A stretch of DNA of 36,816 nucleotides from a virus (lineage: Duplodnaviria > Heunggongvirae > Uroviricota > Caudoviricetes), in the IMG/VR virus record IMGVR_UViG_2563366829_000018, positions 1 through 36,816 of that record; one strand, 5' to 3'. This document shows, piece after piece, positions 3,298 through 36,438 of the stretch (its first letter is position 1; every line of letters begins with the position of its first letter). The notes under the pieces were generated by a model. That model did not search any database. It had not been told where the DNA came from and saw nothing but the letters and a program-made list of their open reading frames with translations. The translations under genes were made by a program, and so were the position numbers.

Positions 3298-6200
3298 CGT
3301 CCACCTCCGGAGAACAGACCACCATCACGGGACTGCTGTTGCATAAAGTCCGCTGCTGCTTTTTTCCCGAGATCATAAACCACCTTCAGGGCAGCCGGAC
3401 CTATCTGCCCGTTCGTGCCATCGTTATTGATCTCGATGTTGTACTGCGGGGCAAACATCGCCATACCTGAACCACCAATATCCGCCACAACCCCCAGCTT
3501 ACCGTCAGCACCACGACGCAGAGGCAGAATGGCTTCAGGCCCAGCTTCCCCCATCACACCTGCACCTTTTGCAAAAGCAAAAAACGTCGGACGATTAACC
3601 ACCGTGCCACTGTAGCGACTCAAATCAGCAGACTGATAAACACCACCATCAGCATTGGGCGTCACACTGGCAGTTGCTGCACTCCCCCAGCCAAACGCCG
3701 AACCAATCCCCTTAACTGCCTGCATCATGGACATCTGAGCCATGATTTTTGCCAGATCAGAAAGGAGCGAGGCGGTAAAAGATTTGAAGTTCAGTTTTCC
3801 GGTAGTACAGAACGTTGCCAGTGCATTACCTGCACTGTTAAATGCCGCTGTAAGCATCTGCTCAGCAGTGCCTGCCGCATTATCCGCATCTGCCGTGAAA
3901 TTCTGAAACGCCCGCATAGCACCGTTTTTCCAGTTACCCTGAGCAATTTCAAGCTGTTGCCAGTAACGGTGATTCTCATTCAGTTGTCGGTTCAGGCTCT
4001 CCGTCAGCGCCTGCTCGGCCTTTCTGTAGTCATCCGTGTTATATGTCCCTTTCTGCTCACTATCCCGCCTCAACTGCTCCAGCTGTTGCTGGTATTTCTG
4101 GCGAAGACTCAGTTGTACCTGATATCGCTGCCGCTGCTGATCACCCATACCCACCGTGGCGATATCCAGGTCATGTTGCTGACGCTGAGCGCGCTCTTCT
4201 TCAGCCAGTTGACTGGTCAGCTGAATTGTTTTTTTCTTCAGATCGTTGAGTGCCGTCTGTTTCTGAAGCTCCTGCTGTTTTACATCCAGCAGCGTCAGTG
4301 CCTGAATCAGTTCATCTTTACGGGCCAGCACACTCTTTTCATCTGCCGTCAGTTTTTTCCCGTCCAGATCGCTGATGCGCTGCTGCAGAGCCAGAAGCTG
4401 TTTATGCGCTTCTGTCATCCTGTCAGTGGCAATGCCTGCTGACTGTCTTGCAGCAGCAATCTGTCCTTCCACCTGTGCCTGTTGCTGGCTGTACTGCAGC
4501 AATAACCGGGTGGCCTCATCATTACGGGTTTCGCGTGTTTTTTTCTTACCGGATGCCAGGGCTTTCTCGTAACGTTCATTTTCACGTTGTATCGCAGCAT
4601 CCCTGACAGCCTGATCGGCGTACTGCATGGCATTAATACGCGCAATTTCACGCTGATGTCGTGCAGCTTCCGTTTCATTCATCCGGTTCAGTGCAGCATT
4701 TTCAGCATTACGGCGTTTCTGTTGCTCCTGATAATTCCGCTCTGCCTGCTCTTTTGCATCCTGCAAATCCTTCTGGCGTTTTTTCTCCTGAAGATCGTTA
4801 AGACGCTGCTGATCGTATTCAACCTGAGAAGATGATGCCGTCCAGGGGAGTCTTTTCGCCCGCGACACTTTCTCCTGCAAAGTGGCAATCTGCGCATCCA
4901 GCGAATCTTCACGACCAATATTCATGGCCGCATCCCAGAACTGCTTCCACCAGTCAGACAAAGTTTGCAGCGTACTGCCCAGCGCATTGAGGTTATTATC
5001 AATATCCGCAGTACGCCGACCGGTTTCCTCTGCCAGTGCAGACATGGCTATCCGTGCCGCATCACTGGACCGCCCCTGCTCTCCAAGGACGCGTATCTGC
5101 TCAAGCTGAGTGGCAGTAAGAAAATGCAGCTCATTGTCCAGAGACTTCGCGGCATTTACAGGATCATCCTTCAGCCGCTTAAACTGATTTATGGTATCGC
5201 TGACCGACTGGCCAACCGATCGCTCCATCTGTGCGGCAGCTCTCGCCACCATACCGATATCGTTTCCACGAAATGCACCACTCCCCACCACCTGAGCCAG
5301 CGCACCGGCTGCAGCATGTTGCGTGATACCATTCCCGGAAATAGCACGACTGAGCGTCCACAGCTGCCCGGCAGTGACTCCGGCATAATGCCCCGTCAGC
5401 GACAGCTGGCGGTTAAATTCTTCCCCCTCCTTCTGACCGTCATACCAGGCTTTACCCAGGCCATAGACAGCCGCGGCAATACCGCCAATAACCCCGCCAA
5501 GCATCATGCCTTTCGGTGACATCAATGTGTCTATCCACCCGGCACGGTTAGCCAGCGTTATTCCGGATCCCCTCAGCGCACCTAAATTTCCGCGGGCCAG
5601 TTCACCTATCAGAACGCCTATCTCCTGACGGGCCGCTGCACTTTTCAGCCCCAGCGAATGCGTGGCTTTTCCTGCCTGCTCCATTTTGCGGATATACACT
5701 TCTGCAGCACTGCTTACCCCCAGCTGGGCAGCCTTAGCACGAAGCAACTCAGAAGAAGAAAGATTCTGGCGGGTTGCCTGCTCTTTAAGCTGACGGATAA
5801 ACGCCACTTTCTGTCGGGTAGCCTCTTCCTCAGCCTGTGTAAGAACACGGGTTTTCGCAGTAACCTCAGAAATCAGCGCCAGATAATCCTGCTGACCAAT
5901 CCCGCCACTGTTTCTGGCCTGTCGGATCTGCTGCTGAATACGCTGTAATTCCTGCAGCCCCGCACTGGCCTGTTTCACACTGTCAATCTGACGATAAAAC
6001 GCAGCAGCCGCTTTATCCTGAGCCTCCGCCAGAGCCATGGCCTGCGCCTGTTCCTCGCGCATTTTCTGGCTCAGTGCCTCCATGCGCTGGCGGGTTTTCT
6101 CCACCTCACGGGCCATGCGTTCATGAGCCTGTGCGTTCTTCTCCACCGTCTGCGCATGAACGGATGCGGCTGTTGCAGCCGAAGAAGCCGCCTGCGTTGT

Positions 6201-18751: not shown

Positions 18752-19465
18752 TCAATAATCAAGCCCTTGCCTGGATACATATCTGTCTGGCGGGAAGCCA
18801 TAATAGCGGTGAAATACAGAAATAAAGTAGGACCTGCTTGAATAACCGCATTTTTCTGCTATAGCCTGTCCATATCCATGCCGGGAACATAACATATTTA
18901 CAGCAACACGCATCCGCTCTTCCAGCAACAAGCGACTGAACATGCCCCCTTCATTTTTCAGTTTTGTCTTTAACAAACTCTCACTCATATGCAACTGTAG
19001 AGCAATCGCACCAAGCGTCCAGCTTGCTGATATATCTGTCTGAATTATCGCCCTGACTTTGGCACTTATGCTGGATAAACATCCACTTAAAAACAATGAC
19101 ATCCGTTCATCTGTTTCAAACAGAGACAGGCAGGCCATCATAAGAAACATATCCGTGGCCTCTCCGGAAAATCCCTGGCTGGTAATTAAAGCCGCAGCCA
19201 ACGCAGGATTGTTGGGTTCCAGCAACAGGTAAAGCGGAATGTCAGTCAGACGAGTCCTCGTCAGCTTATGCTGACTTTCCAGATATTGACTTACGACGGA
19301 TTCGCTTATATCGACAATTTTAACTTTGCCATAATGCATAAGGAAAAGCTCCCTGATGCATTTGGTGGCCAGAACAACTGAGCCTGGCTTAAGTGACAAC
19401 GTATCCTTTTCAAGAAAAATATTAATTGGGGAGCAAACCATGATAACTGAACAGACAACAGCCAT
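18752..19465 (-). CDS. AraC-family transcriptional regulator (prophage cargo, PatE-like)
   Basis: C-terminal AraC-type HTH (SESLLKTKLKNEGGMFSRLLLEERMRVAVNML ... GYSSRSYFISVFHRYYGFPP); AT-rich gene; start may be the internal Met at 19441. Confidence 0.75.
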   Translation of the reverse strand: MAVVCSVIMVCSPINIFLEKDTLSLKPGSVVLATKCIRELFLMHYGKVKIVDISESVVSQYLESQHKLTRTRLTDIPLYLLLEPNNPALAAALITSQGFSGEATDMFLMMACLSLFETDERMSLFLSGCLSSISAKVRAIIQTDISASWTLGAIALQLHMSESLLKTKLKNEGGMFSRLLLEERMRVAVNMLCSRHGYGQAIAEKCGYSSRSYFISVFHRYYGFPPDRYVSRQGLDY

Positions 19466-20075: not shown

Positions 20076-20693
20076 TCAATTATCTTCCAGGCCGGATGCT
20101 ATCAACGAAAGCCTCTCAAAAAACGCTGTAGCAGCCTTGTCCAAAGTTGAATAAGTACTGTATTCTCCGTGTTCGGGACCAACCACTACCCATGGTCGTC
20201 TTTTTGGGATTCGGGACTTCTCAGAAATCACTGTTCCAGATATACCAATATCAATTGTTACACCTGTTATTATTTTCTCTTCATCTCTTTCCCTGAACTC
20301 AATTGCCATAAATGCCGTTTTTTTTCGTTTCCCGTTTTTAAAAAAATCAAATAAAGCAAAGCGATGCTCATTAAAATCAACACCCCATCGTCCTTCAGGA
20401 TAAAGGGCATGAAAGTTGTCATTTACGCTCTGCATCGTCTCATAAGCTTTAACTTCTAAATCTCCATAGTGCATAGATACCGCGCAGGAGTCACTGGGTA
20501 ACTGTATTTTCCCAAGATTGAAAACCTTTACTGCTCCAGAACTATGGCATCTTGCCCGCAATTTATCCCCATTTATACTAATCGGAGAAATATTCCTTAA
20601 TGTTCCGGGCTGGCTCCCTCCTAAGTAAACGACTGTTAAAGATTGCTTATTTTCAATTGCATCAACTAATACATGCTCTACATTTTTATCCAT
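20076..20693 (-). CDS. Hypothetical protein (205 aa), AT-rich cargo gene immediately downstream of Q
   Basis: Strong RBS GGGAGG 6 nt upstream of ATG (MDKNVEHV); no domain recognisable by eye. Confidence 0.6.
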   Translation of the reverse strand: MDKNVEHVLVDAIENKQSLTVVYLGGSQPGTLRNISPISINGDKLRARCHSSGAVKVFNLGKIQLPSDSCAVSMHYGDLEVKAYETMQSVNDNFHALYPEGRWGVDFNEHRFALFDFFKNGKRKKTAFMAIEFRERDEEKIITGVTIDIGISGTVISEKSRIPKRRPWVVVGPEHGEYSTYSTLDKAATAFFERLSLIASGLEDN

Positions 20694-20768
20694 AATAACC
20701 TCCCAATGAACAGGTATCATCAGGAGGTTATAATAAAATATGATTATTTACTTTGATTGAATTTATTA

Positions 20769-21140
20769 CTATATGTAACAATCAATTTCTAAAGATACCC
20801 CCAACATTGCCAGACAACCGTCAATAAACCCTTCAGCTTTCTGCAGTCTGATAACAACCTGATTAAGTGATATCCCCAGTTTTACCCCCAACACCCGTAA
20901 TGTAACCCCATACACATAATACATTTCCAGTAATTCGTATTGATACGGTTCCTTTTTCTTAAGAACTGTCATCGCAGAGCTAATGATCAGGCCATCGTCA
21001 TCGCTACATTGCGGGCGGGATTTTACTTTCGAAGGAATTAATCCCTTAAAACCTGCAGCAACAGATGACCATTCCACATCCTCGTGATTATTTGCCACCC
21101 ATGCCCCCCAACGTTCAAGAACCATTTGAATATCACGCAT
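20769..21140 (-). CDS. Q: Late-gene antiterminator Q (QuuD/phage-82 type)
   Basis: MRDIQMVLERWGAWVANNHEDVEWSSVAAGFKGL matches the QuuD-family N-terminus as I recall it; GGAG RBS; position upstream of the lysis module. Confidence 0.75.
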   Translation of the reverse strand: MRDIQMVLERWGAWVANNHEDVEWSSVAAGFKGLIPSKVKSRPQCSDDDGLIISSAMTVLKKKEPYQYELLEMYYVYGVTLRVLGVKLGISLNQVVIRLQKAEGFIDGCLAMLGVSLEIDCYI

Positions 21141-21157
21141 CAACTTTCTCCACAAAA

Positions 21158-22153
21158 TCAGGCCAGCACGCCTATTGCCAGCGCACGATCGATAAAACGA
21201 AATATCAGCTCCAGCTGGGAGCCATACTTCTCTTCAAATGCCACGGTATCCGCATGCAGCTCGTCGTGATGCTTTCTGCACAAAGGCAGCACGAAGAGGT
21301 CATGCGCTTTTGTACCCATTCCCCCCTGACCGTGGCCTATCAGGTGGTGGGGATCATCAGCAGGCTTTCCACAACATGCACACGGCTGCGTCTTAACCCA
21401 GCGCGTGTACTTTTCATTAACCCAGCGGCGACGTTTGGGGCGTAACATAAAAGACTCCGGCGACTCCGGATCCACTTTCAGCGCCAGCACCTTTTTCGCT
21501 TTATCCTGGATGATGCTGGTGGCAGGAACCGAAGGCACAAGGTCACTTTCCCGGGTGACAGACGGCACAACAGGCTTCGGTAATCTCAGTGCCTTACGGG
21601 CTGCACTTTCCGGTAAGGCATCCGCCAGGTCATTACGAATCAGCCACCAGCACAGTTCCGGCATTGTCACAACGTGACTGTCATCAAAACCGAGATCCCG
21701 ACGCACAACAGACAACACCCAGCGGGCACAGTTATCCGTTGCCATTGATTCCAGCCGTTCCGTGAACTGATCGCGCAGCTGGTTATCGCAGTGCCAGCAC
21801 AGACGGATTGCACCCGGAGCGTGTCGCATTGTGGTCATGTTCTCGCTGTGCCATCCGGAATGAGGCCACTGGCAGCCTTTTTCACGAAGTAACCAGCTTT
21901 CAAGACATTCCACGCCACCAGCACGACGGATCACTGCCTCATGGCGGAACACGGCCCGAACGGCAGGATCATCCGCCAGCGGTTGTGATGCCGCCGGAAC
22001 GGCACCACTGGCGAAAGATGAATAACGCTCCGGCTCAGGCTCCAGCAGGACACGCCCCTGCATAAACAGGGGCATCAGCTCTGAACCTGGCCTGAACAAT
22101 ACGATCCCCATACGCGGGGCAATTTCAGGGGTCAGTAGTGCTCTCACAGTCAC
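21158..22153 (-). CDS. DUF968-family protein (YdfU-like) with a C-terminal Cys/His cluster
   Basis: CACCGKPADDPHHLIGHGQGGMGTKAHDLFVLPLCRKHHDELH; sits immediately upstream of Q as ydfU does in Qin. Confidence 0.75.
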   Translation of the reverse strand: MTVRALLTPEIAPRMGIVLFRPGSELMPLFMQGRVLLEPEPERYSSFASGAVPAASQPLADDPAVRAVFRHEAVIRRAGGVECLESWLLREKGCQWPHSGWHSENMTTMRHAPGAIRLCWHCDNQLRDQFTERLESMATDNCARWVLSVVRRDLGFDDSHVVTMPELCWWLIRNDLADALPESAARKALRLPKPVVPSVTRESDLVPSVPATSIIQDKAKKVLALKVDPESPESFMLRPKRRRWVNEKYTRWVKTQPCACCGKPADDPHHLIGHGQGGMGTKAHDLFVLPLCRKHHDELHADTVAFEEKYGSQLELIFRFIDRALAIGVLA

Positions 22154-22154
22154 C

Positions 22155-22970
22155 TCAATGAACGGTATCGAGCAGCTTTAACAGCTCAGGAAATCGGGAT
22201 TCGAAGAAATGCGGCTGCGTCTCGCGCGGATTTGCAGGACTGGTGATGTTCTTGCCGAACATGCAGCCTTTCGCGGTCAGCGACCAGAATTTTTTGATGT
22301 TGTTAATCGCGGTACGGCTGTATCGTTCGCGTTGTTCAACGATCCCCAGCTTCGCCATCTGGTGATATGCCTGATTAGCCGTCAGGCGGATACCATACTG
22401 CTTCAGCAGTGCACTCAGCGACAGCGTAGGGCGGCTTGAACCATCTGGCGCATCAGCAGGTGCATCAATGGCATAGATCGGCATAAGTTCAGGAAGACCA
22501 GCTACCTTTGATAATTTCTGGTATGCACCAAGTTTCGAGGAGTTTGACAGATTTAGAGTCTTTGCTGCTGATTCAAGCAGAATGACCCCGGATTTAATTT
22601 TGTCGGATGTGGTTTCTTCTGGTGATGAATTATGAAGCGCATCAAAAGTACGTATCACTTTTAAGCTGAATGCCGGGCTGATCCACATTGCATATGCATA
22701 GACCAGCTCTTTACAGACATACGTCCCACCATTGCGCCCCTGAATGGTGATGACAGGAATACTACGGGAATCTCCCGTAGTTTCTTCTTCCAATAATTCC
22801 ACAAGAGCCTTCGTTTCAGGACGACGCATAAACTCGTGAACTTCCAGCGAACGGGAGGAGCGATTCTCACCAGCGGCAAGAAGAGCAGCTTTCTGAAGGT
22901 CGTTAAGACAGTAGTTAGATTCGAAGTACTGGCGCACAGAAACGCCATCAATTACAAGCAACTGATTCAT
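22155..22970 (-). CDS. KilA-N domain protein (antirepressor-like)
   Basis: N-terminal KilA-N-like segment; start MNQLLVIDG preceded by GGAG. Confidence 0.6.
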   Translation of the reverse strand: MNQLLVIDGVSVRQYFESNYCLNDLQKAALLAAGENRSSRSLEVHEFMRRPETKALVELLEEETTGDSRSIPVITIQGRNGGTYVCKELVYAYAMWISPAFSLKVIRTFDALHNSSPEETTSDKIKSGVILLESAAKTLNLSNSSKLGAYQKLSKVAGLPELMPIYAIDAPADAPDGSSRPTLSLSALLKQYGIRLTANQAYHQMAKLGIVEQRERYSRTAINNIKKFWSLTAKGCMFGKNITSPANPRETQPHFFESRFPELLKLLDTVH

Positions 22971-23132
22971 TGGTTTCTCCACAAATTTTTATCCACGAGC
23001 GGGACTGCACTCCCTTTTCGTTGATGCAGGATGAACTTACTGCGATTTTTAATAGTTATCAAGGATACACTGTTCATAAATACAGTATCTTTAACGAGGT
23101 AATACCCAAATTTAGGGTGTTGCTCAATTCCG

Positions 23133-23528
23133 TTACCGAGTTGCTAATTTGCAACTCGCTTTTTCGTACTTACTGATAGTGATCTCGACCTTCCCCTCCG
23201 GGATAACCGGTCCCCACTCCACCAGCATTCTTTTCACCTGACTGTCGTCTTCCCACACACCCGCGTGGGTCAGGGCGTCAAACAGCGCCTTGTTATAGTT
23301 GTCCAGATCGCGGATCCGGTTATCCGGAGGAAACAACACGATCTCCACTGAAGCAGGTGCCGACGTTGGTTTCGGCAGACGACGTAACTGCTCAACTATT
23401 GCTGCACACGCCGCGCTCTGGAATTTTCGCCCCGCCGCGCTTATCAGGCTCTTACCAGCAAACGCCCCTTTGTTGGGGTGTCGCCAGTACGTGTTCACGC
23501 TGGGCGGAAAAGGCAGTATTAGCTTCAT
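23133..23528 (-). CDS. rusA: Holliday junction resolvase RusA
   Basis: RDLDNYNKALFDALTHAGVWEDDSQV matches the RusA catalytic core (RRRDLDN...FDAL). Confidence 0.85.
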   Translation of the reverse strand: MKLILPFPPSVNTYWRHPNKGAFAGKSLISAAGRKFQSAACAAIVEQLRRLPKPTSAPASVEIVLFPPDNRIRDLDNYNKALFDALTHAGVWEDDSQVKRMLVEWGPVIPEGKVEITISKYEKASCKLATR

Positions 23529-23851
23529 ACTTTCAGGCCCCTCTCATGTAACCAGTGGGTTGCACGCAGCCTTGCGTTTTCCTCACCGGCAAGCAGTGCG
23601 CGGATAATCCCGACCGCCTCGCTGTCGTCGTCCTTCATCGCAGTATGAAGCGTTATCCCCCGGGCCACGCCACGCTTTATCGTGATGACGCCTTTTTTCT
23701 CCAGTGCGCGAAGATGCTCCACCGCTGCATTCACCGAACGGTATCCCAGCATGGTTGCCACCTCCTGATTGGTTGGCGGGAAGCCACGTTCTTTCTGATA
23801 AGAAATCAGCATATCCAGCACCTGCTGCTGGCATTGAGTTAACGTCGTCAT
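23525..23851 (-). CDS. LexA N-terminal DNA-binding-domain protein without a peptidase domain
   Basis: LTQCQQQVLDMLISYQKERGFPPTNQEVATMLGYRSVNAAVEHLRALEKKGVI parallels the LexA winged-HTH; only 108 aa. Confidence 0.65.
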   Translation of the reverse strand: MTTLTQCQQQVLDMLISYQKERGFPPTNQEVATMLGYRSVNAAVEHLRALEKKGVITIKRGVARGITLHTAMKDDDSEAVGIIRALLAGEENARLRATHWLHERGLKV

Positions 23852-24501
23852 GCCGCCATCTCCCTGACCAGTTTTTCCGCCTGCTGGCGAACCTGCGCCA
23901 GAAACGCCTCACCACATGCCTCAAGTTCATCGCGCCCTATGTAGCTGATTGCCGGTCCCTTCCAGGTCTTGTCGAAAACAGCAATAGCACCAGCGAAGAA
24001 AGCACCTGTTGGCACCTGCTTTTCGTCTTTCGGGATAAACCAGGCAGGCAGTTCAAAACCAATACGCCCGCGAATAAAAGCAATATGATCTGCATCTTCC
24101 GGCCACCACACTTCGCTGGTGGCAGCTTTGATCAGGAAAACATAGCGCCCGCCTTTATCACGCATGGCACTGGCATGTTTCATGATGTAACGCATGCCGG
24201 TGATGTATTGCCCCTCATGCTGACTGGCGCGGCTGTACGGGGGATTACCAAAGGCAGCACCTTTAAGCTCCGCAAGACGTTCAGACCAGTCATGCGCCAG
24301 CGCGTTGTCTTCCGCAGTGTAATACGCAGCACATTTGGCGTTATCACCGTCAGTGAACAGATCCAGAACAAACGGGCCAAACAGGGTGTTAATTCCCCAG
24401 AAAATGTTGTCCGGCGTGCGCCACTGATCGCCCACTTCCTTCAGTTCATGGGCTGGTTTGTTCCGCAGTTCCACCAGCGCCTGGCAATATTTATTACTCA
24501 T
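23848..24501 (-). CDS. Phage DNA N6-adenine methyltransferase (Dam-like), orphan
   Basis: NPPY catalytic motif (FGNPPYSRAS); no adjacent restriction gene; start set at MSNKYCQ. Confidence 0.8.
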   Translation of the reverse strand: MSNKYCQALVELRNKPAHELKEVGDQWRTPDNIFWGINTLFGPFVLDLFTDGDNAKCAAYYTAEDNALAHDWSERLAELKGAAFGNPPYSRASQHEGQYITGMRYIMKHASAMRDKGGRYVFLIKAATSEVWWPEDADHIAFIRGRIGFELPAWFIPKDEKQVPTGAFFAGAIAVFDKTWKGPAISYIGRDELEACGEAFLAQVRQQAEKLVREMAA

Positions 24502-24995
24502 TAAGCCCCCACGAAATTCCCTGACAGATACCACTCTTCACCCGATGCAGCGCGCTTGCTGCTTTTCCGTAAGCACCGCTCACGACGTGCCAGAAAATTG
24601 TTTCGTTCTGGCTGGGAGTGGCTTTCACGGAATGCCGCCATCCACACCGTTGCAGCACGACGGTATAAGCCCCTGGACTCCAGTTCTTCAGCCTGGCGGG
24701 TCAGGCACAAAATCACACGGGGATCGTTAGTGCCGACATAGAAATTGCGCACAGGTCTGGTTTCACGAACTGGTTGTGGTTCCGGATCCTGCGCTCTCTC
24801 AGTCAGGCGTGGGAAATGTCTGCGTGTATCTCCTTCACAACGGTGAGCCACACGCCCACTCTGACGTAACTTGCTTGCTGACTGCAGAACGCGCTGCCGT
24901 GAGTAACCAGCAAAAGCATCCGCAATGTCTCCGGAAGTACAGCCCGGATGGGCTTCAATGAATTTCTGAACTTCATTCAAAAGACTCATGATCAC
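24501..24995 (-). CDS. Hypothetical protein with a PerC-like C-terminal region
   Basis: LESRGLYRRAATVWMAAF resembles the PerC/Pch signature (GLWRRAA..W); ATGA coupling with the upstream gene. Confidence 0.45.
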   Translation of the reverse strand: MIMSLLNEVQKFIEAHPGCTSGDIADAFAGYSRQRVLQSASKLRQSGRVAHRCEGDTRRHFPRLTERAQDPEPQPVRETRPVRNFYVGTNDPRVILCLTRQAEELESRGLYRRAATVWMAAFRESHSQPERNNFLARRERCLRKSSKRAASGEEWYLSGNFVGA

Positions 24996-28092: not shown

Positions 28093-28785
28093 ATGAACAT
28101 AGGAAACCGAGTCAGACAACTTCGCCAGGCGAAGAACATGAAAATCGCCGATCTCGCTGAAGCAATAGGAGTGGATGCGGCGAATATCTCACGCCTGGAA
28201 ACAGGTAAGCAGAAACAATTCACTGAACAAGCCCTGAGTAATATTGCCAGGAGCTTAGGTGTTGATATCGCTGATCTCTTTACCTCAGACGTCAAAAGTA
28301 ATACTGTATGTAAAAACAGTATTGGTGAGGATGTTGCGCAGGTGAAGGATGTATTCCGTATTGAAATGCTGGATGTCAGTGCCAGTGCGGGAAATGGCCT
28401 TATCCAGGGCGGTGATGTCATTGATGTGATTCATGCCATTGAATACAGAACTGATAATGCTGTATCGATGTTTGGCGGACGGCCAGCCAATCACATTAAA
28501 GTTATCAACGTTCGTGGGGACAGTATGTGTCCAACCATTGAGCCAGGAGATCTCATCTTCGTTGATATCAGTATCAATCAGTTTGATGGGGATGGTATAT
28601 ATGTATTTGGTTTTGATGATAAAATTTACGTCAAACGACTGCAAATGATACCTGATAAACTGCTGGTAATTTCTGATAATCAGATTTACCGCGAATGGGG
28701 AATTACCAGCGAAAACGAACATCGGTTTATGGTCTTTGGAAAGGTCTTAATCAGTCAGTCACAAACCCTTAAGCGACACAATTAA
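28093..28785 (+). CDS. cI: CI-type prophage repressor (XRE HTH plus S24 LexA-like autopeptidase domain)
   Basis: N-terminal HTH; C-terminal S24-like domain (VRGDSMCPTIEPGDLIFVD ... KIYVKRL); no Shine-Dalgarno sequence upstream of the ATG. Confidence 0.9.
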   Translation: MNIGNRVRQLRQAKNMKIADLAEAIGVDAANISRLETGKQKQFTEQALSNIARSLGVDIADLFTSDVKSNTVCKNSIGEDVAQVKDVFRIEMLDVSASAGNGLIQGGDVIDVIHAIEYRTDNAVSMFGGRPANHIKVINVRGDSMCPTIEPGDLIFVDISINQFDGDGIYVFGFDDKIYVKRLQMIPDKLLVISDNQIYREWGITSENEHRFMVFGKVLISQSQTLKRHN

Positions 28786-28900: not shown

Positions 28901-29487
28901 AGACATACAAACAAGGTACTAACAAAATTTGGTTGTAACACGGCGTATGGCACATGCGTCGTTAGCGGTCTGGTGACGTTAAAGGGGACAATCCACTCCT
29001 TGCTCGGGCAAACAAACCAGGTAGCCGGAATGTGCAAGTCAATGATGATGCTGATAAGACGCCTAACCAGCGTGGCGATCCGGTTTGACGCCTGGGAAGA
29101 GACCAGGGTGCAACGATGAGGGCATTTATGGAACCGCGACAAAGTGTGGTGCCGTAACTGGCTAAGTGCTCTCAGCGTTGTGGTAATCCGCGAAATGGCG
29201 CGGCGGTAAGTATGGCGGGGTTACTCTTTCCCCGTTGAGGACACCGGATTGTCAGGTTGACCATACGCCTGAGTGACAACCCCACCACAACAGCCACTGC
29301 TTTGGCGGTACCAGTTTGTACCCTTGCTTCCGGCTGGTACCGCTCTTTTTACAAAACAGAGAAGAGCATCACCGGACGACGGGCTCATAACCCAATCCAT
29401 CCGGGCGGCTGTCACCGCAGGTGTTCTTCTCTGTTTTGTGGAGAAACCAACCGACCTTGCAGGGTCGGTATGATGAGGAGCAGCAAA

Positions 29488-29850
29488 ATGGCTAGCGTAC
29501 GCAGTACTGATGTGCAGGTATTTATCGTAGAACTGGACGGCGGCGTATTTGAAACCAAACTCGGCGCAGTTCTCAGTGAAGTCGCTTCCGGTGTGATGAA
29601 CACGAAAAACAAAGGTAAAGTCTCGGTCAATCTGGACATCGAACCGTTTGATGAGAACCGTGTGAAAATCAAACACAAACTCTCATATGTTCGCCCGACT
29701 AACCGCGGGAAAATCTCCGAAGAAGACACCACCGAAACGCCGATGTATGTCAATCGAGGTGGTCGCCTGACTATTCTGCAGGAAGACCAGGGACAATTAC
29801 TGACTCTTGCCGGTGAACCTGACGGAAAACTCCGCGCAGCAGGTCGTTAA
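29488..29850 (+). CDS. YfdP-like hypothetical protein (120 aa)
   Basis: GAGGAG RBS; size and position match the yfdP-yfdQ-yfdR-yfdS module of prophage CPS-53. Confidence 0.55.
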   Translation: MASVRSTDVQVFIVELDGGVFETKLGAVLSEVASGVMNTKNKGKVSVNLDIEPFDENRVKIKHKLSYVRPTNRGKISEEDTTETPMYVNRGGRLTILQEDQGQLLTLAGEPDGKLRAAGR

Positions 29851-29915: not shown

Positions 29916-30740
29916 ATGTCTCAGAACTTAGACGCAACCGCAATTAATCAAATCCATGCCCTTATTTCTGCTCAGGGTGTTAATGAAATTATCAGTAAGA
30001 TTGGTGCCGATGCTGTGGCATTGCCTGAGAATTTCCGCATTCATGATCTGGAAAAATTTAATTTAAATCGCTTCCGTTTCCGTGGTGCACTTTCCACTGC
30101 CAGCATCGATGATTTTACCCGTTATTCTAAAGATCTTGCAGATGAAGGCACCCGCTGCTTTATCGATGCCGATAATATGCGTGCCGTCAGTGTGCTTAAC
30201 CTGGGTACTATTGATGAGCCAGGTCACGCAGATAACACTGCCACTCTCAAACTGAAAAAGACAGCACCGTTCTCTGCTCTGTTGTCTGTTAACGGCGAGC
30301 GTAACTCCCAGAAGTCACTGGCAGAATGGATCGAAGACTGGGCCGACTACCTTGTGGGCTTTGATGCTAATGGTGACGCTATTCAGGCAACAAAAGCGGC
30401 TGCGGCAGTCCGTAAAATCACGATTGAAGCAAACCAGACCGCTGATTTTGAAGATAATTACTTCAGCGGCAAACGCTCCCTGATGGAGTCTGTCGAAGCG
30501 AAGACCAAAGACATTATGCCAGTGGCATTTGAATTTAAATGCGTTCCGTTTGAAGGTCTGAAAGAACGTCCGTTTAAATTACGCCTCAGCATTATCACTG
30601 GCGATCGTCCTGTACTGGTTCTGCGCATTATTCAGCTGGAAGCGGTGCAGGAAGAAATGGCTAACGAATTTCGTGATCTGCTTGTTGAGAAATTCAAAGA
30701 CAGCAAAGTAGAAACCTTTATTGGTACTTTCACCGCCTGA
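29916..30740 (+). CDS. YfdQ-like DUF2303 protein (274 aa)
   Basis: Length and gene order match yfdQ. Confidence 0.65.
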
Positions 30741-30867
30741 TTTCATTACTGCAAATGCCCCTGCGGGGGCATTTATGGAAACGTAATTAACTCAATAATC
30801 ACCGGATGGTGAGGGCTTCCTTTTACCAGAATTCAGCGCGGTGCAGTGCATATACGTGGAGAACAAA

Positions 30868-31404
30868 ATGTCATTTATTAAAACTTTTTCCGGGAAGCAT
30901 TTTTATTATGACAAGATAAATAAAGACGACATCGATATTAACGATATCGCGGTTTCCCTTTCAAATATCTGTCGCTTTGCCGGTCATCTTTCGCACTTCT
31001 ACAGCGTCGCCCAACATGCGGTTCTTTGCAGCCAGCTGGTGCCGCAGGAATTTGCTTTTGAAGCGTTAATGCATGATGCAACAGAAGCGTATTGCCAGGA
31101 CATTCCCGCACCACTGAAACGCCTTCTTCCTGACTATAAACGGATGGAAGAAAAAATAGACGCCGTAATCCGTGAGAAATACGGGTTACCCCCAGTTATG
31201 AGTACACCCGTGAAATATGCCGATCTCATCATGCTGGCAACCGAACGCCGCGATCTCGGGCTTGATGATGGCTCTTTCTGGCCTGTACTGGAAGGCATCC
31301 CGGCAACAGAGATGTTCAACGTGATTCCACTGGCACCGGGTCATGCCTACGGGATGTTTATGGAACGTTTTAACGATTTATCGGAGTTACGCAAATGCGC
31401 ATGA
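30868..31404 (+). CDS. HD-domain phosphohydrolase (YfdR-like 5'-deoxynucleotidase, 178 aa)
   Basis: HD motif context (SVAQHAVLCSQL ... ALMHDATEAYCQDIPAPLK). Confidence 0.7.
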   Translation: MSFIKTFSGKHFYYDKINKDDIDINDIAVSLSNICRFAGHLSHFYSVAQHAVLCSQLVPQEFAFEALMHDATEAYCQDIPAPLKRLLPDYKRMEEKIDAVIREKYGLPPVMSTPVKYADLIMLATERRDLGLDDGSFWPVLEGIPATEMFNVIPLAPGHAYGMFMERFNDLSELRKCA

Positions 31405-31957: not shown

Positions 31958-32189
31958 ACAGAACGAAAAATCTATCGCTCAAATTGCTGAGTATATCCCG
32001 CGTGCGTGCCGGGATATGCAGTTGCAGGAAGCCAAAGCACGCCTGGAGAAAAAAATTGCGCTCTATATCGATGACGGCTGTGATGCCGCCGTTCTTAACG
32101 CGGCGTTCGCGCCAGCTCTTAACAGTCATACGCGAAAGTCTTTTTTTTCGTGCATCGCAGCGCAGATCCGTAAAGGAGGCAACCAGTGA
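31950..32189 (+). CDS. Hypothetical small protein (79 aa)
   Basis: ORF with overlapping stop/start in the operon. Confidence 0.35.
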   Translation: MFKQNEKSIAQIAEYIPRACRDMQLQEAKARLEKKIALYIDDGCDAAVLNAAFAPALNSHTRKSFFSCIAAQIRKGGNQ

Positions 32190-32785
32190 GCAACATTAAC
32201 TATCAGGTACTGCGTGAAAAGGCAGAGAAAGCAACTAAAGGAAGCTACATCGTAGGGCATACATCTGTTAACCAACACGGCAATTTAACAGGAGTTTTTG
32301 TTTGTCAAAAATGGAAAGGAGAACCCGGTGGCGTAATTGCAGAATGTCACGTTAACTGCCTGGTTGAAACAGATGCTCAGGCTTATGCAAACGCTGAATT
32401 CATAGCAGAGGCTAACCCGGCTACCGTGCTGGCACTGCTGGATGAACAGGAAAGAAACCAGCAATACATCAAACGCCGCGACCAGGAGAACGAGGATATT
32501 GCGCTAACGGTAGGGAAGCTGCGCGTTGAGCTTGAGGAGACAAAATCAAAACTCAACGAGCAGCGCGAGTATTATGAGGGAGTTATCTCTGATGGGTGCA
32601 AGCGTATTGCTGAACTGGAAGCGCGGGAAGTTCAATTACCGACTCGCTACGACCTTCGATATGGACACCCCATAAATGCAGATGAGCGACAAGTCATGAT
32701 ACCTAAAGAAAATGGCAGTTGGCTTTACCTGATTGACCTAGAACACGCATTACGCGTCGCTGACATTCGCATCAAAGGAGAGTGA
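32186..32785 (+). CDS. Ead/Ea22-like protein
   Basis: N-terminus MSNINYQVLREKAEKATKG and central coiled-coil typical of Ea22-like early-left proteins. Confidence 0.6.
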   Translation: MSNINYQVLREKAEKATKGSYIVGHTSVNQHGNLTGVFVCQKWKGEPGGVIAECHVNCLVETDAQAYANAEFIAEANPATVLALLDEQERNQQYIKRRDQENEDIALTVGKLRVELEETKSKLNEQREYYEGVISDGCKRIAELEAREVQLPTRYDLRYGHPINADERQVMIPKENGSWLYLIDLEHALRVADIRIKGE

Positions 32786-32786
32786 T

Positions 32787-33302
32787 ATGGCGTTAACACA
32801 CCACGAACTCTGTCAGATTGCGTACAAGTTCCTTAAGCGCAACGGGTTCAAGGTTTGCTTTCATGACCGCTTTGTTGCTGTAACCAGTACCGGAGAACAG
32901 CCAGATGCTATGGGATTCAGAAATTCAGCATCATGCCTGATAGAGGCGAAGTGTTCTCGTGCTGACTTGTTGGCAGATAGAAAAAAGCGTTTCCGTAAAA
33001 ATCCCTCACTTGGCATGGGCGACTGGCGATTCTTTATTAGTGAGCCGGAAATTATTTCAGTTGAGGATTTACCTCCCGGCTGGGGATTACTTCACGTTGT
33101 TAACGGAAGAGTACGGAAAGTACATGGATGGCCCAGGGGTAATTGCTGTTGGGGTAATCCTGACGATAAGCCATTTACCGGGAATAAGCAGGTTGAATGC
33201 GATTACATGTTATCTGCATTAAGGCGCATGGAGTTGAGAGGGCACCTTAATGAAATATATGACGGTGTAATTGTTAATAAGAAAGAAGGAAACGCGGCAT
33301 GA
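32787..33302 (+). CDS. Putative PD-(D/E)xK-type nuclease (171 aa)
   Basis: Candidate catalytic triad in EQPDAMGF ... CLIEAKCS. Confidence 0.45.
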   Translation: MALTHHELCQIAYKFLKRNGFKVCFHDRFVAVTSTGEQPDAMGFRNSASCLIEAKCSRADLLADRKKRFRKNPSLGMGDWRFFISEPEIISVEDLPPGWGLLHVVNGRVRKVHGWPRGNCCWGNPDDKPFTGNKQVECDYMLSALRRMELRGHLNEIYDGVIVNKKEGNAA

Positions 33303-33817
33303 TCACTATTACCAAAGAGCGACTGCTGACAATCAAGCAGTGGCGCGAAACATACGGACCGGGTAGCAACGTTGTACTGCCAGCAGAAGAAGCGGAAGAA
33401 CTGGCACGAATTGCTCTGGCATCGCTGGAAGCAGAGCCGATAGGTTTCCGTTGCAGGCGCAATGATAACCTTGGTGATTGGAGTTACGTATATCATCGAG
33501 AGCCAGATGATTTTGAGCGCAAACATTTAGTGATAGAGGGCATTTACGCCGCCCCTCCAGCGCCGGTAGTGCCGGAAGAAATGTATTGGCAGGATGCGCC
33601 AGTTGAAGGCAGCAGCAAAGCGGCTGCATACGCTACAGGCTGGAACGATTGCCGCGAAGCCATGCTTCAGTCCGGAAACTTTCGGGAAAATAAAGATTCG
33701 TCAACCAATAATTTTCGGAAAATCCCGGAAGCGTCAACCAGCTCTCCGGTAACTCCGGATGGTTGGATAAGCTGTAGTGAGCGAATGCCGGACGACAGGC
33801 AGGAGGTGAATCAATGA
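33299..33817 (+). CDS. Hypothetical protein (172 aa) with a DUF551-like C-terminal motif
   Basis: C-terminal DGWISCSERMPDD resembles the DUF551 core. Confidence 0.45.
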   Translation: MITITKERLLTIKQWRETYGPGSNVVLPAEEAEELARIALASLEAEPIGFRCRRNDNLGDWSYVYHREPDDFERKHLVIEGIYAAPPAPVVPEEMYWQDAPVEGSSKAAAYATGWNDCREAMLQSGNFRENKDSSTNNFRKIPEASTSSPVTPDGWISCSERMPDDRQEVNQ

Positions 33818-34302: not shown

Positions 34303-34539
34303 ATGGGCAATGTGATTCAACTGGCTCCCAATGAATGGGTTTGTGAAAGCGTTCTTATCGCAATTACCGGGCTCAAACCAGGCACAATTCTTCGGGCCCG
34401 GAAAGAATGCTGGATGGTTGGAAGAGAGTATATTCACGTATCACCAGACGGTAATCCAAAGCCTTCCAGTGAATGTATGTATAACAGAAAAGCAATAGAT
34501 GCCTGGGTCGCCTCAATGAAAAACAAACAACCCAGGTGA
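34303..34539 (+). CDS. xis: Excisionase
   Basis: 78 aa, immediately upstream of int; resembles e14/DLP12-type excisionases. Confidence 0.65.
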   Translation: MGNVIQLAPNEWVCESVLIAITGLKPGTILRARKECWMVGREYIHVSPDGNPKPSSECMYNRKAIDAWVASMKNKQPR

Positions 34540-34594: not shown

Positions 34595-35908
34595 ATGGAT
34601 AAAGTCAAATATCCAACAGGCGTCGAAAACCACGGCGGCACATTACGCATCTGGTTTAATTTTAAAGGTAAACGTGTCAGGGAAAATCTTGGTGTCCCTG
34701 ACACTGCCAAGAACAGGAAGATCGCCGGGGAACTGCGGACATCAGTATGTTTTGCCATCCGCACAGGAAGCTTTGATTATGCTGCACAGTTCCCTGACTC
34801 CCCCAACCTTCAGGCTTTTGGGGTAAGTAAAAAAGAAATTACGGTGAAGGAACTTGAAGAAAAGTGGCTGGATCTGAAACGAATGGAAATCTCTGCAAAT
34901 GCATTCAATCGCTATGAATCCGTTGCAAGAACGATGGTTCCGAAAATTGGAGGCAGTAGACTGGTGTCATCGGTAACCAAAGAGGAATTGCTGTATATCA
35001 GGAAAGATTTGCTGACCGGGTATCAGAATTCAACGAAAAACAAAGCAGCAGCAAAAGGACGGAGCGTCGTTACTGTAAATTATTACATGACGACAATCGC
35101 TGGAATGTTTCAGTTTGCTGCAGATCACGGTTACTTAGAAGCAAATCCCTTCCAGGGAATTAAGCCTCTTAAAAGAGCCAGGGCAGAGCCAGATCCGCTA
35201 ACTCGTGACGAATTTATTCGCCTGATAGATGCTTGCCGACATCAGCAGACGAAAAACCTGTGGTCATTGGCTGTGTACACAGGAATGCGTCACGGTGAAC
35301 TGGTCTCCCTGGCCTGGGAAGATATCGATCTGAAGGCAGGAACAATTACCATCAGGCGCAATTATACGAAACTTGGTGAGTTCACTCTACCGAAAACTGA
35401 AGCAAGCACAAACAGGGTTGTGCACCTTATCCAGCCCGCTATCAGTGTCCTGAAAAATCAGGCTGAAATGACAAGACTGGGTAAGCAGTACAACATCAAG
35501 GTGCAACTACGTGAATATGGACGTTCAGTGAACCATGAATGTACTTTCGTGTTTAACCCTCAAGTGGTTAGAAAAAGCGAACAGGTAGGTTTTGTCTACA
35601 AAGTCGATTCTGTAGGTGACTCATGGGAAACAGCCATTAAGCGTGCAGGGATCAGGCATCGAAAGGCATACCAGTCACGACACACTTATGCGTGCTGGTC
35701 ATTATCTGCCGGAGCAAACCCAAGCTTCATTGCCAGCCAGATGGGCCATGCAAGTGCCCAGATGGTATTCAATGTATACGGAGCATGGATGACTGACAGC
35801 AATGCAGAACAGATCGCAATGCTGAATCAGAAGCTGACAGATTATGTCCCAATGATGCCCCATAGTCACCAAAGTGACACCAGAGGCTTATTAAAATCAG
35901 TAAGTTAA
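34595..35908 (+). CDS. int: Tyrosine-type site-specific integrase
   Basis: C-terminal catalytic motifs (R...HxxR...Y: MRHGELVSL, YQSRHTYACW, VFNVYG); GGAGG RBS; at the prophage end. Confidence 0.9.
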   Translation: MDKVKYPTGVENHGGTLRIWFNFKGKRVRENLGVPDTAKNRKIAGELRTSVCFAIRTGSFDYAAQFPDSPNLQAFGVSKKEITVKELEEKWLDLKRMEISANAFNRYESVARTMVPKIGGSRLVSSVTKEELLYIRKDLLTGYQNSTKNKAAAKGRSVVTVNYYMTTIAGMFQFAADHGYLEANPFQGIKPLKRARAEPDPLTRDEFIRLIDACRHQQTKNLWSLAVYTGMRHGELVSLAWEDIDLKAGTITIRRNYTKLGEFTLPKTEASTNRVVHLIQPAISVLKNQAEMTRLGKQYNIKVQLREYGRSVNHECTFVFNPQVVRKSEQVGFVYKVDSVGDSWETAIKRAGIRHRKAYQSRHTYACWSLSAGANPSFIASQMGHASAQMVFNVYGAWMTDSNAEQIAMLNQKLTDYVPMMPHSHQSDTRGLLKSVS

Positions 35909-35934: not shown

Positions 35935-36438
35935 GTGGAGGGCAACACCACGCTTTACGCCCTGCCGAAACCCGAGGTTGTCCTGCGCTGGCGTGAGCAG
36001 ACCACAGATGACTTCCGCTTCTGTTTTAAGTTTCCGGCGACCATTTCGCATCAGGCAGCATTACGGCATTGCGATGATTTAGTGACTGAATTTTTGACCC
36101 GCATGTCACCGTTGGCTCCGCGCATTGGGCAATACTGGCTGCAACTGCCTGCCACATTCGGCCCACGGGAGCTGCCTGCGCTTTGGCATTTTCTCGATTC
36201 TCTTCCTGGCGAATTTAATTATGGCGTGGAAGTCCGCCATCCACAGTTTTTCGCCAAAGGAGAAGAGGAACAAACGCTTAATCGCGGTTTACATCAGCGC
36301 GGCGTTAATCGGGTGATTTTAGACAGCCGCCCGGTTCATGCAGCACGTCCACACAGTGAAGCTATTCGCGACGCTCAACGAAAAAAACCTAAAGTTCCGG
36401 TACATGCTGTACTGACGGCGACAAATCCGCTGATCTGA
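35935..36438 (+). pseudogene. Truncated host gene fragment (possibly yecE, DUF72 family), cut at the 5' end by the prophage junction and at the 3' end by the IS element
   Basis: Reading frame is open upstream into int; stop codon is supplied by the first bases (TGA) of the IS inverted repeat. Confidence 0.45.

Follow-up and report, generated by a model that had tools for sequence, protein, structure and literature searches.

MmcB-like proteins (DUF1052, PF06319) are chromosomally encoded, mainly in alpha-proteobacteria, and their family, which includes the structure 3dnx (SPO1766 of Ruegeria (Silicibacter) pomeroyi), is listed as member no. 92 of the PD-(D/E)XK superfamily (PMC3424549). A kinship of DUF1052 with archaeal junction resolvases had been noted already in 2005 (PMC1189080), and MmcB of Caulobacter is described as a PD-(D/E)XK endonuclease, encoded by an SOS-regulated gene, that protects against mitomycin C and cisplatin (PMC9578287). 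Our search of the literature found no usable account of MmcB-like proteins in phages. Lambdoid phages carry small, optional DNA-processing genes of their own that are expressed early and lie in the nin and exo-xis neighbourhoods, among them those for RusA, NinG/Rap, YbcO and lambda Exo, the last of which is a PD-(D/E)xK enzyme of the YqaJ/RecB-like branch.

What is encoded by a gene that shares these lambdoid neighbourhoods and would likewise be a small, optional and early-expressed DNA-processing gene, yet whose product is unrelated in sequence and fold to RusA, NinG and YbcO? The gene described here lies in a lambdoid prophage of 36,816 nucleotides (Caudoviricetes; IMG/VR record IMGVR_UViG_2563366829_000018), the whole of which is referred to as the window. 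It encodes a 171-residue protein that very probably possesses the PD-(D/E)xK nuclease fold with an intact active-site motif. The family to which it belongs is a remote sister of the MmcB-like proteins within the PD-(D/E)xK superfamily; it is a new, uncatalogued family inside a very well-known superfamily, and its nearest named relatives are the MmcB-like proteins and the junction resolvase Hjc.

An intact gene in the early-left operon

The plus strand of the window reads from a cI-like repressor gene (28093-28785) through a terminator-like hairpin and genes for YfdQ/DUF2303, a YfdR-like HD protein and a DUF551 protein to an Ead/Ea22-like ORF, the target gene, a DUF551 fragment, a DUF4222 gene, xis (34303-34539), int (34595-35908) and a DUF72 ORF. 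The preliminary description had placed the gene in the early-left region, and this run from the repressor to xis and int shows that the placement was correct. The gene and its immediate surroundings comprise the following features.

32186 to 32785, plus strand: Ead/Ea22-like ORF upstream of the target gene (Pfam PF13935, E 1e-40)
32775 to 32780, plus strand: Shine-Dalgarno sequence AAGGAG, a strong ribosome-binding site, 6 nt 5' of the target ATG, read directly from the sequence
32787 to 33302 including the stop codon, plus strand: intact gene of 171 codons for a protein with, very probably, the PD-(D/E)xK nuclease fold, of an uncatalogued phage family that is sister to MmcB-like/DUF1052
33299 to 33817, plus strand: downstream ORF, a truncated mosaic remnant in which DUF551 is represented by the first 16 profile positions only

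The reading frame extends without interruption from the ATG at 32787 to the TGA at 33300-33302. The stop codon of the upstream ORF (TGA, 32783-32785) falls between the AAGGAG and the target ATG and ends 1 nt before the latter, and the start codon of the downstream ORF overlaps the target stop codon as ATGA, so the gene is tightly packed in its operon. No promoter-like signal private to the gene was found above background. In RefSeq, the identical sequence of 516 nt is treated by PGAP as a pseudogene ("hypothetical protein, frameshifted") and annotated over its first 179 nt only; the label is found at positions 6001-6179 of locus L086, which is identical to the window gene, and at positions 6001-6179 of locus L087, which is 97% identical, one being a chromosome and the other a plasmid. 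A tblastn search against these "frameshifted" records returned an uninterrupted 171-residue match, the ORF is full length in L086 and L087, and full-length proteins of 171 amino acids form a cluster of 1,363 sequences. The ORF is real and intact, contrary to the frameshift label, and recognising an intact MmcB/Hjc-like nuclease here corrects the RefSeq pseudogene annotation.

Both ORFs that flank the gene look like recombination scars, and PGAP calls both incomplete. The Ea22-like ORF is a chimera that in blastn comparison matches ea22 of phage phi24B (vb_24B_6c) at 95% identity over its first ~348 nt and then diverges. Further upstream, the early-left operon contains genes for YfdQ (DUF2303) and a YfdR-like 5'-deoxynucleotidase (29916-31404); their homologues in a matching E. 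coli chromosome bear the PGAP names YfdQ family protein and yfdR (5'-deoxynucleotidase). Nothing in Pfam matched the ORF at 29257-29850, and neither exo, bet nor gam was detectable in the early-left operon of the window.

Predicted fold and active-site motif

The protein was modeled twice with AlphaFold, from 28 sequences (pLDDT 81.5) and from 63 sequences (pLDDT 93.0, pTM 0.86, all five models in agreement). Both models contain a helix (residues 5-18), strands at 23-25, 41-45 and 48-54, a second helix (58-65) and a strand at 80-85, and in the C-terminal part a hairpin (100-113) followed by a long helix (134-150). The core of the model is the alpha-beta-beta-beta-alpha-beta arrangement of the PD-(D/E)xK fold, in which D40 precedes strand 41-45, and E53 and K55 close strand 48-54. 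Among predicted viral structures (BFVD), the Foldseek matches included phage proteins that are named MmcB-like, with E-values from 1e-6 to 1e-4. Against the PDB, the better model gave nothing at E ≤ 0.001 and 3dnx was not among the matches listed; the top matches were mostly PD-(D/E)xK nucleases, but at E 0.02-0.5. The preliminary description had proposed this fold and had named a different predicted fold as the outcome that would speak against it; confronted with the AlphaFold models, the proposal survived.

The same description had taken the D...E.K spacing in EQPDAMGF (residues 37-44) and CLIEAKCS (residues 50-57) as the nuclease signature. In the loose form D-x(8-30)-[DE]-x-K this spacing is uninformative, being present in 24 of the 53 ORFs of the window and in 62% of shuffles of the target protein, whereas the strict form PD-x(8-20)-hydrophobic-hydrophobic-[DE]-x-K is unique to the target among the same 53 ORFs and arises in 0.6% of shuffles. 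The real support for the nuclease motif is its conservation across the family, not the loose spacing. The segments that matter are the following.

32895 to 32906, plus strand: E37-Q-P-D40, the "PD" half of the active-site motif, leading into beta-strand 2 (residues 41-45)
32934 to 32987, plus strand: C50-LIEAKCSRADLLADRK-K67, the hydrophobic strand 3 with E53-x-K55, then the helix 2 signature
33012 to 33092, plus strand: G76-MGDWRF (strand 4) to LPPGWGLL (start of the beta-hairpin), conserved non-catalytic core
33183 to 33236, plus strand: N133-KQVECDYMLSALRRME-L150, the C-terminal helix, with the near-invariant E137 and R146

The codons of the motif residues are at 32904-32906 (D40), 32943-32945 (E53) and 32949-32951 (K55). 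Conservation was counted over the 130 representatives of 50%-identity clusters that cover the core: D40 is present in all 130, E53 and K55 in 129 each, and the full triad in 129. Four other charged positions are kept to a similar extent, E37 in 129 of 130, D60 in 130 of 130, D64 in 128 of 130 and K67 in 129 of 129. Across the family D40, D60, G78 and R81 are invariant, and H5, E37, P39, E53, K55, S57, D64, K67, R70, P96, W99, G100, E137 and R146 are nearly so. Helix 2 bears the family signature S-R-x-D-(F/L)-x-x-D-x-x-K, and the segment from strand 4 to the hairpin holds G78, R81, P96, W99 and G100. The acidic residue that many relatives have in helix 1 is at a variable position (about 70% of sequences are acidic at position 7), and H5 of the same helix is near-invariant. 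For the C-terminal helix, N133 to L150, our guess would be a contact with DNA or between the subunits of a dimer. Virulent-phage homologues and fusion proteins likewise retain the D/E/K triad. One representative, P0148, has lost the ExK element (RVHVV in place of LIEAK) and has kept D40 and the SRSDF string; it may be an inactivated branch.

Relationship to MmcB-like proteins and Hjc

The target protein by itself matched no model in Pfam (even at E ≤ 1), NCBIfam or PADLOC, and a single-sequence search of PDB sequences found nothing significant. Its PHROGs matches, 9263 and 631, are both of "unknown function", and there was a weak match to a PHROG named "DNA repair protein". A profile of 28 sequences aligned the string D...IE-x-K-x-SR-x-DF-x-AD with 3dnx at a non-significant E of 0.3. 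A more diverse profile of 59 sequences matched 3dnx at E 3.1e-5 over ~100 residues, and when this profile was aligned with the 3dnx segment by hhalign, the probability was 97.6% across 84 columns. As judged by sequence profiles, the link to 3dnx, an established member of the superfamily, is statistically supported. The same 59-sequence profile reached Sulfolobus Hjc at E 0.2 and placed its PD and ExK opposite the PD...ExK of Hjc; the Hjc residues opposite D40, E53 and K55 are presumably the catalytic D42, E55 and K57. In a Pfam scan of the 59 family members, weak matches were to Hjc in 37 (best E 1.3e-4), MmcB-like PF06319 in 17 (best E 2.9e-4), AHJR-like in five, UPF0102 in two, and VRR_NUC and the CoiA nuclease domain in one each, while eight unrelated Pfam families were matched by one or two of the 59 members each at E 0.09-0.29. 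Lambda Exo was not among the matches in family scans of the target and its relatives, and a protein homologue search with a broad profile found only unnamed proteins without Pfam domains.

How does the protein compare with these relatives? It is of similar size to the MmcB-like proteins (about 150-170 amino acids), and the structural similarity to 3dnx spans the whole domain and goes with the ExKxSRxDFxxD signature. The two have in common D...(I/V)E-x-K-x-S-R-x-D-F-x-x-D, in which D40 aligns with the D of RVDVMG in 3dnx, and also R81, P96 and G100-L-L. In contrast, an insert K-x-F-R-x-x-P (residues ~67-73) is present in the target and absent from 3dnx, and GMGDWRF, GWGLL and the C-terminal NKQAE...ALRR are motifs of the target's own. 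The target is borne by phages of gamma-proteobacteria, unlike the chromosomal MmcB-like genes, and resides in a phage pL operon, unlike the SOS-regulated cellular mmcB. With Hjc (PF01870; 1hh1, 2eo0, 1ob8) the target shares the core fold and the PD...(hydrophobic)ExK arrangement, and both are small proteins without extra domains. However, every match to Hjc is below threshold (best E 1.3e-4 among relatives, E 0.2 by profile), the position of the helix 1 glutamate of Hjc is variable in the family, and the C-terminal halves differ. The target falls below the Pfam thresholds and by the Pfam criterion is a member of neither PF06319 nor PF01870. As an addition to a nuclease superfamily that is already very large and well known, the family brings only a modest conceptual gain.

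Distribution and genomic neighbourhoods

This is a common gene for one that lacks a Pfam, NCBIfam or PADLOC model and whose PHROGs are of "unknown function". At nucleotide identities of at least 90% it is found in 137 phage records, 136 of them at 95% or above, and the carriers are mostly Stx1a- and Stx2a-converting phages (102 of the 137 are named Stx-converting). It is carried by 928 of 5,426 complete E. coli genomes (17%). Of the E. coli copies 248, roughly one in five, reside on plasmids, P1-like phage-plasmids among them, and the three plasmids given as examples measure 94-98 kb. The sole plasmid inspected, NZ_CP123018.1 (93.9 kb), looks like a phage-plasmid; it encodes an S24 peptidase, a Phd/YefM antitoxin, a metallophosphoesterase and Ea22/DUF551 proteins. 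At the protein level, carriers include 643 phage records and 478 IMG/VR contigs, and an exhaustive profile search put the size of the family at 3,324 cluster representatives at 50% identity, from both temperate and strictly virulent phages.

No conserved partner gene emerged when the neighbours from -4 to +4 were clustered at about 70 loci: the largest neighbour cluster, without a Pfam domain, was present at 18 loci and the next, Ea22-like, at 11. Among 80 viral loci, int lies within a few kb 3' of the gene in 14, the left-arm arrangement of the window. In about 20 of the 80 the gene is instead in the nin region, after O-like/DnaB replication genes and before NinG, YbcO, RusA or Q, and prophages of Microbulbifer and Pseudohongiella have the same nin-region arrangement. 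Immediate neighbours elsewhere are genes for C5 methylases, SNF2/ResIII helicases, DnaB and dATP/dGTP pyrophosphohydrolase. Throughout, the setting is one of genes for replication, recombination and repair. A methylase gene is found within 7 kb upstream in about eight of the 80 loci and directly adjoins the gene in three (L070, L075, L077). In the Ackermannviridae phage FEC14 the stop codon of a 205-residue homologue (gp089; L089, 4480-5097) abuts the start of a DNA primase gene, and in the Guernseyvirinae phage AH01 the homologue, named "nuclease" by the depositors, overlaps a metallophosphatase/nuclease gene. FEC14 gp089 has an insert of ~30 residues before the C-terminal helix.

Two rare fusion proteins were seen. 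In P0135 (L005, 7086-8372; 428 aa) an N-terminal TniB-like ATPase precedes the nuclease domain, and in P0225 (243 aa) the nuclease domain is followed by a C-terminal dATP/dGTP pyrophosphohydrolase domain. The dATP/dGTP pyrophosphohydrolase gene was considered as a partner and rejected: going by domain coordinates, most of its matches are flanking DUF551-type segments, and a true PF04447 domain is adjacent in only three or four loci, apart from the one fusion protein.

Possible functions

What might such a protein do for a phage? We infer a catalytic activity, metal dependence, substrate, time of expression and biological role for it as follows. It would be a small DNA endonuclease with the PD-(D/E)xK (restriction-endonuclease-like) fold, probably dependent on metal, with D40, E53 and K55 as the catalytic centre, and would be transcribed with the early-left (pL, "exo-xis"-type) operon upon infection or induction. 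The substrate would most likely be branched or damaged DNA and not a specific sequence, a preference taken from distant relatives only. Cleavage would help the phage to replicate, recombine or repair its own genome, and the gene would be an optional accessory that works without a dedicated partner. We hold, with about even confidence, that the protein is a DNA endonuclease that is selective for DNA structure or damage and serves phage replication, recombination or repair. Of the roles first suggested for it, recombination, anti-defence and exclusion, the genomic context favours recombination- or repair-type processing over the other two. [quoted passage not shown] A replacement junction resolvase was considered and rejected: the window has both a RusA gene (23133-23528) and a DUF968/HNH gene (21158-22153), and RusA and NinG co-occur with the target elsewhere, so the protein is not simply a junction resolvase.

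A more specific version of the repair reading, which we regard as unlikely, is that of a phage-carried damage-tolerance nuclease that unhooks or incises crosslinked or otherwise damaged DNA and so lets damage-induced prophages copy a template that is itself damaged; Stx prophages are by standard practice induced with mitomycin C. If this version were true, there would be an effect on the induction yield and so on the output of toxin phages.

It is also rather unlikely that the protein is a host-takeover or anti-defence nuclease, which would be made early and break down the DNA of the host, of plasmids or of competitors, or the nucleic-acid part of a host defence. A patchily distributed accessory gene of an early operon (928 carriers among 5,426 E. 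coli genomes), with an intact catalytic motif and an occurrence in virulent phages, would suit such a role, and some of its neighbours, for example orphan methylases, are of the anti-restriction type. However, no likeness to a known anti-defence protein was seen, and the closest relatives are repair or junction nucleases. Nor is there a companion immunity gene, an inhibitor or a conserved partner, and the 171-residue core domain lacks an obvious targeting module.

Could the protein have lost catalysis and act as a silent DNA-binding protein? Homologues without activity do exist in the PD-(D/E)xK superfamily (PMC3424549), and the gene sits among exo-xis genes that bias lysogenization and induction (PMC8614690, PMC7093339). 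This is nevertheless very unlikely: the near-complete retention of the triad (129 of 130 representatives) argues for catalysis, and virulent phages, for which no lysogeny decision arises, carry the family too.

A prophage nuclease of exclusion, which was among the roles first suggested, or of abortive infection, protecting the lysogen from other phages, we consider very improbable. PADLOC-DB 2.0 returned zero families even at E ≤ 10, the gene is translationally packed in a repressed pL operon without a promoter-like signal of its own above background, and strictly virulent phages carry the family, next to a primase gene; together these argue against a defence that protects the lysogen. A sensor or partner gene is absent too.

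A selfish, free-standing homing-type endonuclease that spreads by cutting sites that lack the gene is improbable to the same extent. The gene occupies many unrelated positions and has no constant neighbour; in the window it is flanked by two truncated ORFs, one Ea22-like and one of DUF551, at a place where ea22 of phi24B is one continuous gene, and homology to another carrier, PhiR5_1, starts only about 23 nt before the ATG. The comparison with phi24B, however, reveals a mosaic replacement and not a precise insertion at a conserved site: window positions 32533-33738 (1206 nt) stand in place of 321 nt of ea22. A clean homing-type insertion was rejected on these grounds, as ~1.2 kb for ~0.32 kb is exchanged and includes sequence beyond the gene, and the junction is ordinary lambdoid mosaicism. 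The protein also lacks an extra DNA-recognition domain, and its nearest relatives are cellular repair nucleases. An "ea22 insertion" is mentioned for phage 933W (PMC8614690). The target was considered as that insertion and rejected: 933W and phi24B, two model Stx phages, have no homologue, and the insertion in 933W concerns other genes. Because both phages are without the gene, the exo-xis literature (PMC8614690) is silent on it, and their lack of it may explain why it has not been studied.

Least probable of all is a restriction endonuclease, or a Vsr-like mismatch nickase, that partners a DNA methyltransferase: a C5 cytosine methylase gene is directly upstream of the gene and overlaps it in L070, L075 and L077 and is near it in L056 and L064, but methylase association is seen in only about eight of 80 loci, no methylase adjoins the gene in the window, where the sole one found (Dam-type, 23848-24534) is on the other arm at a distance of ~8 kb, the Vsr family was absent from the matches, and the protein has no specificity domain.

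Other genes of the prophage

The nin-type region of the window is on the minus strand (20769-24995). Besides the RusA, DUF968/HNH and Dam-type methylase genes, it contains genes for a PerC-like protein, a KilA-N protein, a protein consisting of the LexA DNA-binding domain only (23525-23851) and Q (20769-21155). Downstream of Q on the same strand are a gene for an AraC-family regulator and an ORF of 214 aa with only a faint WYL match (18752-19465, 20076-20720). The two are at roughly the place where Stx phages carry stx, and they may be cargo genes.

At the other end, directly 3' of int, the DUF72-family ORF (35935-36438, E 8e-34) looks like host flank; the DUF72 protein of E. coli is YecE. In the best-matching RefSeq chromosome a related prophage adjoins mlrA, and with a DUF72 flank in one case and mlrA in the other, the target gene is common to prophages at different integration sites.
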